IMG/VR virus record: IMGVR_UViG_3300043414_000021
Coordinates: 1-26,499 of that record
Direction: 5' to 3' (one strand)
Source: a virus
Taxonomy: Duplodnaviria > Caudoviricetes
Length of the DNA stretch: 26,499 nucleotides
A program made the position numbers and the translations under genes. This document shows positions 5,635-10,245 of the stretch, in pieces. Positions within the stretch are counted from its first letter, which is position 1; every line of letters starts with the position of its first letter. A model generated the notes under the pieces. The model made no database searches and had not been told where the DNA came from. It saw only the letters and a program-made list of their open reading frames with translations.

Positions 5635-5825
5635 TTGATAAGTACATACGCATTCTTATTGACGAGATTGACGACAAAATTGAACAACTCCAAGACGCGA
5701 TGTCGATTGGTTCGCCCCGCGACTTCCCGGAGTACAAAGAAATGGTCGGTGTGGTTAAAGGTCTACGCATCGCCCGTTTAAACCTAACAGACCTACGTTC
5801 TAAAGTTGAGGAATCCGATGACTAA
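5631..5825 (+). CDS. Small hypothetical protein
   Basis: 64 aa, ATGA-coupled to the portal stop; helical, with YKEMVGVVKGL. Confidence 0.75.
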   Translation: MIDKYIRILIDEIDDKIEQLQDAMSIGSPRDFPEYKEMVGVVKGLRIARLNLTDLRSKVEESDD

Positions 5826-6210
5826 ACTCGTATTGGCTACAGAAAACGGCGAAGTACCTGAAAACGCCGAAGACAAAGCCAAACAACTACCCCGCCCAGC
5901 CGGGTATCACGTTCTTTGTGCAGTACCAGAAGTTGAAGAAGAGTTTGAAAACGGTCTTATCAAATCTTCAACAACCGTTCACTTTGAAGAAATGCTAACC
6001 ACAGTGCTTTTTGTGGTTGCAATGGGTCCAGATGCATACAAAGACCCTAAGAAGTTCCCTTCTGGGCCTTGGTGCAAGGTGGGAGACTTTGTTTTAGTAC
6101 GTCCAAACGCAGGTTCTAGGCTGGTAATCCACGGCAAAGACTTCCGTTTGATCAATGACGACACCATTGAAGCCGTAGTAGATGATCCTCGCGGAATCAA
6201 ACGTAAATAA
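5818..6210 (+). CDS. groES: GroES/Cpn10-like co-chaperonin
   Basis: LPRPAGYHVL, GLI, VVAMGPDAY, WCKVGDFVL and FRLINDDTIEAVV match the GroES fold; GAGGA RBS before ATG 5818. Confidence 0.88.
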   Translation: MTKLVLATENGEVPENAEDKAKQLPRPAGYHVLCAVPEVEEEFENGLIKSSTTVHFEEMLTTVLFVVAMGPDAYKDPKKFPSGPWCKVGDFVLVRPNAGSRLVIHGKDFRLINDDTIEAVVDDPRGIKRK

Positions 6211-7592: not shown

Positions 7593-8504
7593 ATGGCTTA
7601 TCCTACGATTGACGCGCCCTATGGGCTAAAGCCAATCAATTTGATTGGTGGTCAGGTATTTGCGGGTTCTACTCGCATGATCCCGATCCTTCAGGCGTAC
7701 GGCACCGGACTTTTTAACGGTGACGTTGTTCAAATGGCTACTACCGGCACGGTAGCGATTAGCACGTTGGCTATTGGCACGACCTCACAAGCTGTCCAAA
7801 CCGTTGTTCCTGCAACGGTTGGTGTGTTTGTTGGTTGTGAGTACTCGCCCCCGGCTGGTCCTCTGTTTGGCAAACAACGCGCTCAGTACTGGCCTGCCAG
7901 CACGAACGCAATTGATGCTGTTGCTTATGTTGTTGATGATCCTGACACTGTGTTCCAGTCGGCTGTGCTATCCATGCCAGCTTCGGCAAACAACACGGCA
8001 ACGGCTCTTAGCACGATTGGCTACATGTCTCCCATCTTTGTGGGAACCAACGTGTACTACGTCGGCGCTAACGTAGGTAGCACGACAACGGGTAACGCCA
8101 CTGGTGGTGTGGTTGGTAACACTGCTGGCGCAAGTAACGGCGCTGGTAACGTAGTCAAAACCAACAGCAACACGGCAGCTTTCCGTGTAGTTGGTCTGGT
8201 TGAAGAGTCATCGGTTACGGTCACGACTTCGTTGACTGCGGCGGCTTCGTCTACGTCATTGACGGTTGCTTCGACCACGGGCGTGTTCCCCGGCATGCAA
8301 GTCATTGTTCCATCCTTTACGGCTGGGGCTGGTGGCGCTGGATACAACACCTACGTCACGGCTGTGACAAGTTCGACGGCTGTTACCGTTTCGGCCAGCA
8401 TCACTGCTGCAAGCGGTTCTGCTGTTGCATTTGTCGGACATCCTGAAGTTCTAGTTAAATGGAACTTTGGATATCACGGCTATTACAACGCTACCAGCGT
8501 TTAA
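7593..8504 (+). CDS. Capsid-associated (decoration/cement-like) protein
   Basis: 303 aa directly upstream of the MCP; APYGLKP, GVFVGCEY and AYVVDDPDTVF motifs; Thr/Ser/Ala-rich beta insertion near the C-terminus. Confidence 0.65.
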   Translation: MAYPTIDAPYGLKPINLIGGQVFAGSTRMIPILQAYGTGLFNGDVVQMATTGTVAISTLAIGTTSQAVQTVVPATVGVFVGCEYSPPAGPLFGKQRAQYWPASTNAIDAVAYVVDDPDTVFQSAVLSMPASANNTATALSTIGYMSPIFVGTNVYYVGANVGSTTTGNATGGVVGNTAGASNGAGNVVKTNSNTAAFRVVGLVEESSVTVTTSLTAAASSTSLTVASTTGVFPGMQVIVPSFTAGAGGAGYNTYVTAVTSSTAVTVSASITAASGSAVAFVGHPEVLVKWNFGYHGYYNATSV

Positions 8505-8514
8505 GGAGTAACTC

Positions 8515-9423
8515 ATGGCTATTTCACGCGCACAGCTACTTAAAGAGCTGCTCCCCGGTCTGAACGCCCTTTTCGGTCTTGAGTATTCTCGCTACGGCGA
8601 AGAGCACAAAGAGATTTACGAAACGGAAACTTCAGAGCGTTCTTTTGAAGAAGAGACCAAGCTGTCTGGTTTCTCTGCTGCACCAGTCAAAAACGAAGGC
8701 CAAGCCATCGCTTATGACAATGCACAGGAAGCATGGACCGCTCGTTACAACCACGAAACCATTGCTCTTGGTTTTAGCCTAACCGAAGAAGCAATCGAAG
8801 ATAACCTCTACGATTCGCTTTCGGCTCGCTATACCAAAGGCTTGGCTCGCGCAATGGCTTACACCAAACAGGTGAAGGCTGCTGCGGTTCTAAACAACGG
8901 CTTCAACGCTGCCTATGTTGGTGGTGATGGAAGGTCTTTGTTTAGCGCCTCGCATCCGTTGGTTTCGGGTGGAGTAAACAGCAACACGCCAGCAACTCAA
9001 GTTGACCTGAATGAAACTTCGTTGGAAAACGCAGTCATTCAGATTGCAGCTTGGACTGATGAACGTGGTCTGCTGATTGCTGCCAAGCCACGTAAGTTGA
9101 TTGTTCCTCCATCGCTCCAGTTCGTTGCAACTCGTTTGCTCGAAACGGAACTGCGTGTTGGTACAACCGACAACGATGTGAACGCTCTGAAGAACAATGG
9201 CTCTATCCCAGAAGGGTATACCATTAACCACTTCTTGACGGACACGAACGCTTGGTTCCTGACCACGGACGTTCCTAACGGTATGAAGCACTTTGTGCGT
9301 ACTCCGTTGCAGAACTCAATGGACGGTGATTTTGACACCGGTAACGTACGTTACAAGAGCCGTGAGCGGTATTCGTTCGGCTGGAGCGACCCGCTTGGAA
9401 TGTACGGTTCTTCAGGTTCCTAA
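8515..9423 (+). CDS. Major capsid protein (HK97 fold, Mu gpT-like)
   Basis: MAISRAQLLKELLPGLNALFG, ALGFSLTEEAIEDNLY, DG.SLFSASHP, PRKLIVPP and RERYSFGWSD motifs; AAGGAG RBS; followed by a terminator. Confidence 0.92.
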   Translation: MAISRAQLLKELLPGLNALFGLEYSRYGEEHKEIYETETSERSFEEETKLSGFSAAPVKNEGQAIAYDNAQEAWTARYNHETIALGFSLTEEAIEDNLYDSLSARYTKGLARAMAYTKQVKAAAVLNNGFNAAYVGGDGRSLFSASHPLVSGGVNSNTPATQVDLNETSLENAVIQIAAWTDERGLLIAAKPRKLIVPPSLQFVATRLLETELRVGTTDNDVNALKNNGSIPEGYTINHFLTDTNAWFLTTDVPNGMKHFVRTPLQNSMDGDFDTGNVRYKSRERYSFGWSDPLGMYGSSGS

Positions 9424-9443
9424 GCAATCACTTAGCGTGGTTG

Positions 9444-9473
9444 GAGGGCCTCTTCGGAGGCCCTTTTCTTTTT
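9444..9473 (+). terminator. Rho-independent terminator after the MCP gene
   Basis: Stem AGGGCCTC/GAGGCCCT with a C(UUCG)G tetraloop, followed by TTTCTTTTT. Confidence 0.92.
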
Positions 9474-9581
9474 ATGTGGGTATTACCTGTTTCGTAACGC
9501 AGGTTGATATGTTTCGTAAACCTACGAATTTTTGTAATTCTCCGTCCATCCCGTTACCAGTTACTAAGTCTTTTAAATCGC

Positions 9582-9610
9582 TTGCGTATAGCTAAAAACA
9601 ATGGTATAAA
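9582..9610 (+). promoter_or_regulatory. Putative sigma70 promoter restarting transcription after the MCP terminator
   Basis: TTGCGT (9582-9587), 17-bp spacer, TATAAA (9605-9610); immediately followed by GTTTAAAC. Confidence 0.65.
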
Positions 9611-9617
9611 GTTTAAA

Positions 9618-9687
9618 CCTAGACCACCCCATCCGTTGACTGACTAGGCAGACTTTCCTCAAAAGACAACGGATGCAGACTTGAGGA
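9618..9687 (+). ncRNA. Candidate structured cis-regulatory RNA leader (double pseudoknot)
   Basis: CATCCGTTG (9630-38) pairs with CAACGGATG (9667-75); CCTAG (9618-22) with CTAGG (9644-48); TCCTCAA (9656-62) with TTGAGGA (9681-87, includes the RBS). Confidence 0.6.
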
Positions 9688-9693
9688 CTTATT

Positions 9694-10245
9694 ATGGGTT
9701 TCGCTTCCCACCTTGGACCGTGGCTACTTGGCACTAACAAGTACACCACTGGCACGACCGCTGGCACGATTCAGAACATGGGCGCAACTATTGTGCTCCA
9801 ATCTGGTTCGTATACCACCCCCGCAGGCGTGTCTACTTCCGCTGCTTATACTGGTGATACTACGCGAATTGCAGTTCTGCCAGCCGGTGCAATCATCCAC
9901 GCAATCATTGCTGATGTAACCACCGCCTTTGTTGGCGCTTCGCTTGCAACCACGTTGACGTTCCAGACTGGCAACGCTACGACTGGTTTGTCTAGCAACT
10001 TTGCGTCAGGGAGCACTTTGGGCACACTTAGCGGCACCAGCACCCTCTCCGCTGGACGTTCGACCATTACGCCAAACACAACCAACATTGCAATCTTTGA
10101 CAATATCGGCACCACAGACCTTATTGTTAATTTGGTATTTGCCACTGCTGGTAACTATACTTCTGGCGGTTCGGTAAACGTACAGATTGTCTATGCTGTG
10201 TGTGGCTCTGACAACGCAATGTACCCGACTGGTTTCCAAAACTAA
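9694..10245 (+). CDS. Virion structural protein (possible head decoration)
   Basis: 183 aa, Thr/Gly/Ala-rich beta protein with LPAGAII; GAGGA RBS. Confidence 0.7.
   Translation: MGFASHLGPWLLGTNKYTTGTTAGTIQNMGATIVLQSGSYTTPAGVSTSAAYTGDTTRIAVLPAGAIIHAIIADVTTAFVGASLATTLTFQTGNATTGLSSNFASGSTLGTLSGTSTLSAGRSTITPNTTNIAIFDNIGTTDLIVNLVFATAGNYTSGGSVNVQIVYAVCGSDNAMYPTGFQN

Follow-up and report, generated by a model that had tools for sequence, protein, structure and literature searches.

The 26,499-nt stretch of viral DNA analysed here (the window) carries part of a phage head and tail module. On its plus strand lies a major capsid protein gene (8515..9423) that matches Mu-like_gpT and Phage_capsid_4 in Pfam, the PF10124 match on 8515-9423 identifying it as a member of the Mu gpT family. 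The encoded protein is HTVC023P-like, being 63% identical to the capsid protein of Pelagibacter phage HTVC023P. The capsid gene is followed on the same strand by a hairpin and U-tract resembling an intrinsic terminator (9443..9474), by a predicted sigma70-type promoter (9582..9610), and by a gene for a putative capsid-surface accessory protein of 183 aa (9694..10245), which consists of an N-terminal arm and a predicted jelly-roll domain. The promoter was read from the sequence and comprises a −35 hexamer TTGCGT (9582-87) that matches at three of six positions, a 17-nt spacer, a TG at 9602-03 and a −10 hexamer TATAAA (9605-10), placing the predicted start site near 9616-17; it was absent from the list produced by a consensus scanner. 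Among relatives, a TATnnn hexamer resembling a −10 element lies just upstream of the first helix of the leader described below (P1) in 109 of 126, and a stricter −10 test was passed by 82 of the 126 compared with 17% of shuffles. One RNA run and one probable DNA run contained contigs of relatives only and gave neither a 5′ end nor information on expression.

Elsewhere in the head module we observed a GroES-like gene (5806-6210), as in cultured relatives, and a gene of 303 aa immediately before the capsid gene (7593-8504) that has no Pfam or PHROG match. For the latter, the Atlas points weakly to phage cement/minor capsid families (score 0.87; 28% and 25% of members), and these phages may thus have two proteins on the capsid surface. 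The gap between the capsid and accessory genes is 120 nt longer here than in the relative L001 and contains a small hairpin (9481-9510) with AGGT and an ATG after it. This resembles the leaders of endonuclease-like ORFs that are inserted after the capsid terminator in four relatives (L002, L048, L062 and L266), in which the hairpin covers the ribosome-binding site of the ORF, and the gap may hold the remnant of a lost insertion. In a further relative, an insertion between the capsid gene and the leader carries an abiF RNA motif (L023:1798-1835; RF03085, 45.5 bits).

The leader RNA that occupies the remainder of the intergenic region is a three-way junction with one lone adenosine in each of three GAC strands and with two pseudoknots. 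Its closing helix, P2, pairs 9630..9638 (CATCCGTTG) with 9667..9675 (CAACGGATG) over 9 bp and encloses two short arms that end in loops of 6-7 nt, one of which pairs with the 5′ tail and the other with the 3′ tail. The first arm, P4 (9640..9651), has 3 bp formed by CUG 9640-42 and CAG 9649-51, and within its 6-nt loop (9643-48) the segment CTAGG (9644-48) pairs with CCTAG in the 5′ tail (9618..9622) to give the first pseudoknot, P1. The second arm, P5 (9653..9665), is formed by CUU 9653-55 and AAG 9663-65; it has 3 bp in the window and 1-2 bp in most relatives. Its 7-nt loop, UCCUCAA (9656-62), pairs with TTGAGGA in the 3′ tail (9681..9687) to give the second pseudoknot, P3, and the 3′ strand of this helix contains the Shine-Dalgarno (SD)-like GAGGA (9683-87), 6 nt before the ATG at 9694. 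The conserved core is made of three R-A-Y strands, which in the window are GAC at 9638-40, 9651-53 and 9665-67. These strands pair with one another in a ring: G9638, the first base of strand 1, closes P2 with C9667, C9640 opens P4 with G9651, and C9653 opens P5 with G9665, leaving the central adenosines A1 (9639), A2 (9652) and A3 (9666) single.

The initial annotation had drawn P1, P2 and P3 at these positions, and none of 1000 dinucleotide shuffles of 9424-9696 yielded such an arrangement, defined as a 9-bp stem whose loop pairs over 5 bp upstream and 7 bp downstream. It had taken the linkers ACTGA, CAGAC and AAGA to be unpaired, which proved incorrect, as they form P4 and P5 and only A9639, A9652 and A9666 remain single. 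It had also read pseudosymmetry into a repeat, GCAGACTT, which does occur twice (9648-55 and 9675-82). The second copy, however, is not conserved: L001, the nearest relative, whose capsid protein is 97% identical, already has an altered version and the others lack it, and we therefore rejected the repeat as a functional symmetry and attribute it to chance. The conserved symmetry of the leader is that of the three GAC strands. The minimum-energy fold alone is unremarkable (z −1.2), as is to be expected from a folding program that cannot form pseudoknots. In the nearest-neighbour model P4 and P5 add ~0.5 kcal/mol to P2, from which the junction is predicted to be only marginally stable by itself and probably needs the pseudoknots or a ligand.

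Conservation and covariation of the leader

The leader fold is real and is strongly conserved, by compensating base changes, in many freshwater and marine phages. Comparison of the post-capsid intergenic regions of relatives showed that the helices covary, both pseudoknots included, which bears out the three helices proposed from a single sequence. Of 80 loci with related capsid genes, 57 showed these helices under a first descriptor, and several of the remaining 23 were cut short or parsed later. Marine and genome-bin loci were then included, and the start of the downstream gene could be located in 211 of 299 sequences; 209 of these 211 could be parsed, giving 175 distinct sequences. Thirteen mis-parsed rows, which include natural variants and a third architecture, were dropped, leaving 162 leaders (128 long forms, the form seen in the window, and 34 short forms). 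When 76 long forms were aligned with MAFFT, 91.2% of cells were paired, and the covariation score was 0.86 vs 0.215 for shuffled alignments, a value that none of 500 shuffles reached; all controls with slid partners scored ≤0.12. The row of the window is out of register in alignment A3 owing to its longer loop.

Both pseudoknots were also recovered by alignment-free tests. Pairing of at least 5 bp between the P4 loop and the 5′ tail of the same leader was present in 115 of 117 distinct loop-tail pairs (P1), and between the P5 loop and the 3′ tail in 87 of 91 (P3); each test gave a z of ~20, no value as high was seen in 2000 permutations, and the crossed controls were null. Within the junction, the middle pair of P4 occurs in four forms with zero mismatches among the 76 leaders, the CUG strand swapping with CAG, and the closing pair of P5 is C-G in 157 and U-A in 5 of the 162 with no mismatch. 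A strict junction test selected 110 of the 128 long leaders vs 1 of 1915 control windows from capsid genes. Conservation of the lone adenosines is partly fixed by the parser's own requirement; in the first alignment, where only the middle strand was fixed, the other two adenosines were present at ≥90%, and three variants have a G at A1 (L019, L039 and L262). Since the sequences are related, all these counts overstate the number of independent events, and the helices are present in dozens of different sequences.

Three architectures and the Mu-gpT-DE motif

The position of the junction relative to the translation start differs between forms. In the long form, P3 ends 5-17 nt before the AUG (n = 120) and overlaps the SD by 1-4 bases in 70 leaders, lies directly beside it in 23 and is separated from it by 1-5 nt in 27. 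The short form is a three-way junction in which a loop pairs across the AUG and codon 2. Its P2 holds the AGG of the SD in 34 of 34 leaders, and the sequence of its P5 loop covaries with codon 2, GCC being found with an Ala codon in 18 of 18 distinct pairs and CCC or ACC with a Gly codon in 11 of 11 (permutation p 0.0004 over 31 pairs, 2 of which are long forms with a mis-called start). In the third form, exemplified by L125, L149, L429 and L434 among others, P2 closes on the AUG itself and the SD lies in the P5 arm. A pattern scan for this form, in which P2 pairing was forced, gave 100 hits, of which 20 (9 distinct) precede an arm-bearing gene of the type found in the window and 80 are without a visible arm gene. 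The proposal that the fold covers translation-start signals is thus supported by pairing in all three architectures, and because each of them places the same junction on the translation start, we read the element as a translational control element and as the 5′ leader of the next gene. Mapped on the capsid-protein tree, the leader switches between short and long form (9 changes among 158), even between phages with 98% identical capsid proteins.

We also observed nine loci of intermediate form (L119, L121, L322, L323, L328, L330, L354, L367 and L399), which have a long P2 and the 5′ pseudoknot, yet whose P5 loop pairs with the AUG and codon 2. Planktothrix phage Pag-Yong1 (L082:3440-3510) has a ‘minor capsid protein’ leader without the junction; judged by eye, a hairpin loop in it could pair over the SD, forming a different knot in the same slot.

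The search of Rfam proposed for the leader returned no relevant match in the window, so the novelty of the long form holds with respect to Rfam models. The leader nevertheless has a catalogued relative, Mu-gpT-DE (RF03012), with the same core in the same slot. This motif reportedly originates from the Weinberg 2017 survey. It is typed ‘Gene; sRNA’ in Rfam and drawn there as a hairpin with an internal loop ending at the AUG. The Mu-gpT-DE model matched 16 of 16 short-form loci, 9 of them above the cut-off, and did not match 4 long or third-form loci; in Roseobacter phage CRP-902 it scores 72.3 bits in the slot after the gpT-family capsid gene. No match to it was found in the window at the gathering threshold, at E ≤ 10 on 9400-9800 or in a search of the window's own record, and at a cut-off of at least 49 bits none was found in 50 related records.

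Like the catalogued motif, the leader in the window closely follows a gpT-family capsid gene and runs up to a start codon (ATG 9694). It contains the motif core GACWG...CWGAC...GAC with its bulged A, as GACTG at 9638-42, CAGAC at 9649-53 and GAC at 9665-67, so that both RNAs run through a stem, a lone A, a CWG/CWG helix, AC, 7-9 nt, GA and a stem. Mu-gpT-DE is closed by a stem of 4-5 bp that includes the start of the SD and lies 13-15 nt before the AUG, a feature that the window lacks: its P2 has 9 bp and ends 18 nt before the AUG, and the SD is covered by P3 instead. The form in the window further differs in having a 5′ pseudoknot and a 3′ pseudoknot upstream of the AUG, and in giving no model score. 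On the basis of the shared slot and the shared junction core we place it with Mu-gpT-DE despite the differences in score and stem. The long form of the window is a larger, uncatalogued variant of this orphan motif, and we read Mu-gpT-DE as a 5′ leader that belongs to the following gene, not as a 3′ element of gpT.

Part of the fold may already have been drawn, as a supplementary entry of the CaCoFold study gives Mu-gpT-DE a pseudoknot label and two extra covariations (PMC7657543). GP20-a, GP20-b and the 8,495 candidate RNAs from IMG/VR described in PMC10690425 are likewise orphan structured RNAs found by covariation directly upstream of phage genes, and differ from the leader in the genes that follow them; the GP20 models gave no Rfam match in the window. 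The Polynucleobacter-1 motif (RF01718) was rejected as a relative, since the rows of its published alignment differ and its model matched none of 46 records. The term ‘gpT’ is absent from the main text of Weinberg 2017. We did not find the long form in the literature covered, and it may already be present among the 8,495 candidates of PMC10690425 or in the supplement of Weinberg 2017.

A compact double pseudoknot with few invariant purines might also suggest a ribozyme whose self-cleavage would process the message between the capsid and spike genes, and one leader subtype contains the sequence CUGACGA, which we take to resemble the hammerhead core. The CUG of this sequence is a helix strand that is paired, covaries and swaps with CAG, and we rejected the hammerhead-like reading of it on these grounds. 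No Rfam family of this kind was matched (HDV-like, twister, pistol, hammerhead or hatchet), the terminator and promoter already part the two messages, and the short form pairs with the start codon, all of which makes a ribozyme highly improbable.

Association with one class of downstream gene

The initial annotation had tied the double-pseudoknot leader to the gene after the capsid gene, and this link extends well beyond the window. In a scan with 14 core bases, none of them taken from P1, P2 or P3, 104 of 120 hits precede an arm-bearing gene. Among these 104 hits, P2 was present in 101, P1 in 101 and a P3 before the AUG in 95, and 7 pair across the AUG. The element remains beside the downstream gene when more than 300 nt part it from the capsid gene (48 of 162 leaders), and six loci without the arm gene are also without the element; one locus, L259, has the arm gene and no visible element. 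It fills the whole predicted 5′ UTR of a capsid cement/spike gene. No second copy was found in the window, nor in the cultured carriers of the long form (HTVC023P, HTVC027P and DSL-LC04), which have one each. The search model was built on the long form and missed CRP-902 and Pag-Yong1, and the 14-base core pattern alone is estimated to occur in ~3,800 IMG/VR stretches.

Sequence searches of Pfam, PHROGs, GenBank phages and the PDB with the 183-aa protein gave no match, and the ESM Atlas returned only unnamed clusters. Its predicted model has a mean pLDDT of 75, with low confidence for residues 1-18, the N-terminal arm. Foldseek matched the model to chain H of the Pam1 capsid (E 2.4e-4), and VIA-align ranked it against the trimeric cement of KHP40 (Z 10.8, rmsd 3.1, 116 aligned), GP4 chain J (Z 10.2) and Pam1 chain H (Z 10.1), a tie between the trimeric KHP40 cement and the cement-like chains of GP4 and Pam1. 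The Pam1 cement is a dimer. The counterpart gene in DSL-LC04 is annotated ‘cement protein’, and the predicted fold, which resembles phage cement/spike proteins, is consistent with the decoration-type product proposed for the gene after the capsid gene. For a second downstream family the top fold is the knob of the Pa223 capsid spike (Z 11.1, rmsd 2.1, 99 aligned), a homotrimer that sits on three-fold axes and is anchored only by residues 2-41 (bioRxiv 2025.06.11.659172). The two families tested show no profile similarity to each other.

Across 114 downstream proteins we found 19 C-terminal clusters that are not linked by BLAST and a common N-terminal arm. The arm is at a fixed distance from the initiating Met, with GP (or its equivalent) at residues 8-9 in all 113 of the 114 proteins that have the motif, and an Arg or Lys follows GP[VIW] in 71 of the 113 arms and not in the protein of the window. 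Divergent versions of the arm use the same RNA junction. These observations suggest that the post-capsid gene is a modular cassette with one arm and at least two folds, in which the exposed domain is frequently swapped.

That the element is seen with a single gene class and once per genome favours a protein over a metabolite as its ligand. The initial annotation had left open either a riboswitch-like or a protein-binding switch, and it is the metabolite half of this proposal that fares poorly. As an orphan riboswitch, the leader would use a three-adenosine pocket to sense a small molecule or ion reporting the stage of infection and would lock P3 over the start signals. Translational riboswitches use knots that cover the SD, which P3 resembles, and P3 is able to cover the ribosome-binding site (GAGGA in the window, with overlap of the SD in 70 of 120 long forms). 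The leader also has the features given for ‘sophisticated’ RNAs in PMC5737381, namely a multistem junction, two pseudoknots and conserved core bases. The element was seen in front of one structural gene class only (104 of 120 core hits), however, and once per phage genome, and was found in 0 of 100 other genomes from each of two host orders (0 of 200 bacterial genomes in all, these being samples that include incomplete genomes), and no metabolic logic connects a metabolite with a capsid spike, so that we consider a riboswitch quite unlikely.

Models for translational control and comparison with known systems

We consider it likely that the leader controls the start of translation in one way or another. 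Sequence analysis establishes the five covarying helices, the tie to a single class of genes, the pairing of the SD in the window and the core shared with Mu-gpT-DE; repression by folding, and the agent that would stabilise the fold, are our interpretation. The mechanism that we tentatively favour, although it falls short of being probable, is a translational OFF operator that would be locked by unassembled spike/cement protein. Host RNA polymerase would start just before P1, making the element the entire 5′ UTR, and the junction, marginally stable alone, would breathe enough for ribosomes to load. Protein that has no free site on a capsid would then bind the junction, probably via the conserved N-terminal arm that otherwise serves as its capsid anchor, and would hold P3 over or beside the ribosome-binding site. 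New capsids would draw the protein off and translation would resume, matching supply to the number of capsids; P1 may additionally guard the 5′ end against decay. Should the protein be the ligand of its own message, binding would have to be through the arm, for which capsid and RNA would compete. A more specific version, which we regard as doubtful, is that the RNA mimics the three-fold docking site of the capsid, with the three lone adenosines meeting the three arms of a free trimer and thereby producing self-shutoff.

Several observations speak against an operator locked by the spike/cement protein. Its arm is not strongly basic, and divergent arms share the junction. P3 takes no SD base in 50 of 120 long forms, the fold match of the window's protein is split between the trimeric KHP40 cement and the GP4 and Pam1 chains, a G replaces A1 in some variants, and the element or its junction is missing in L259 and Pag-Yong1. 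The capsid protein, being more conserved than the arm, would by sequence fit as the ligand equally well. The same operator could be bound by another head protein (the capsid protein, a scaffold or the product of the cement-like gene 7593-8504) or by a host protein, with the result that spike would be made only once capsids have assembled, a possibility that we judge unlikely. The capsid protein is at least 53% identical across all 158 carriers tested, the downstream proteins share the arm only, and the element never lies far from the capsid gene; autoregulation of the P22 scaffolding protein, as cited in PMC2115188, would provide a precedent. Yet where insertions intervene the element keeps with the downstream gene, and it is missing from loci that have the capsid gene but not the downstream one. 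This pattern fits either ligand and gives the capsid protein no special role, and the swapping of short and long forms on near-identical capsid proteins also argues against such a ligand.

An operator locked by its own spike/cement protein must further be weighed against a purely structural leader that needs no ligand, which would set a fixed translation rate, protect the 5′ end by means of P1 and conserve its junction bases for folding. In favour of such a leader, P1 begins within a few bases of the predicted start site, and the SD is fully open in the 50 of 120 long forms whose P3 takes no SD base, where the fold alone need not repress. For the T4 genes e, soc, 49 and I-TevI, RNA structure by itself keeps expression low (PMC3014915). 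A simple hairpin would suffice for this purpose, however, whereas here the GAC/GAC/GAC core is kept in three architectures and the short form constrains codon 2, and release in T4 is achieved by a late promoter that removes the 5′ strand, whereas here the promoter is predicted upstream of the whole element. We therefore regard a ligand-free leader as unlikely.

To judge from sequence comparison, the leader is a widespread and structurally unusual RNA that is better defined than its catalogued short relative and has a candidate function. What Rfam lists as an orphan ‘sRNA’ becomes a group of 5′ leaders whose junction is defined and whose role can be tested, and the repertoire of RNA folds gains a natural three-adenosine three-way junction with two pseudoknots. 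We know of no description, in phages, of the supply of a capsid decoration protein being matched to the number of capsids. The cultured carriers HTVC023P, HTVC027P, DSL-LC04 and CRP-902 make the leader directly testable, and phages of the HTVC023P type are stated in PMC10149686 to be among the most abundant in the ocean.

Among known systems, further comparisons come from T4, in which soc is a capsid decoration gene. As in our leader, the SD and/or AUG is held in a helix in the leaders of T4 soc, e, 49 and I-TevI, as set out in the section of PMC3014915 on these genes. In the case of gene e, the same source describes a late promoter that omits the 5′ strand and so releases the start, an arrangement that is not predicted for the leader studied here: across relatives the −10 signal lies upstream of the whole element rather than within it, as an internal promoter of the T4 e/soc type would, and release would therefore need another cause. 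The operator of T4 gene 32 is likewise a structured phage mRNA leader; excess gp32 is proposed there to repress its own translation through a leader pseudoknot, with DNA and mRNA competing for the protein (both from the gene 32 account in PMC3014915). Its knot is a simple H-type, 67 nt upstream, and its product is a nucleic-acid-binding protein (PMC3014915). Our leader, like an autogenous operator, is a structured RNA placed where translation of a single class of genes begins, and unlike that of gene 32 it precedes a capsid-surface protein gene and combines a three-way junction with two knots, to which, by analogy, a protein would bind.
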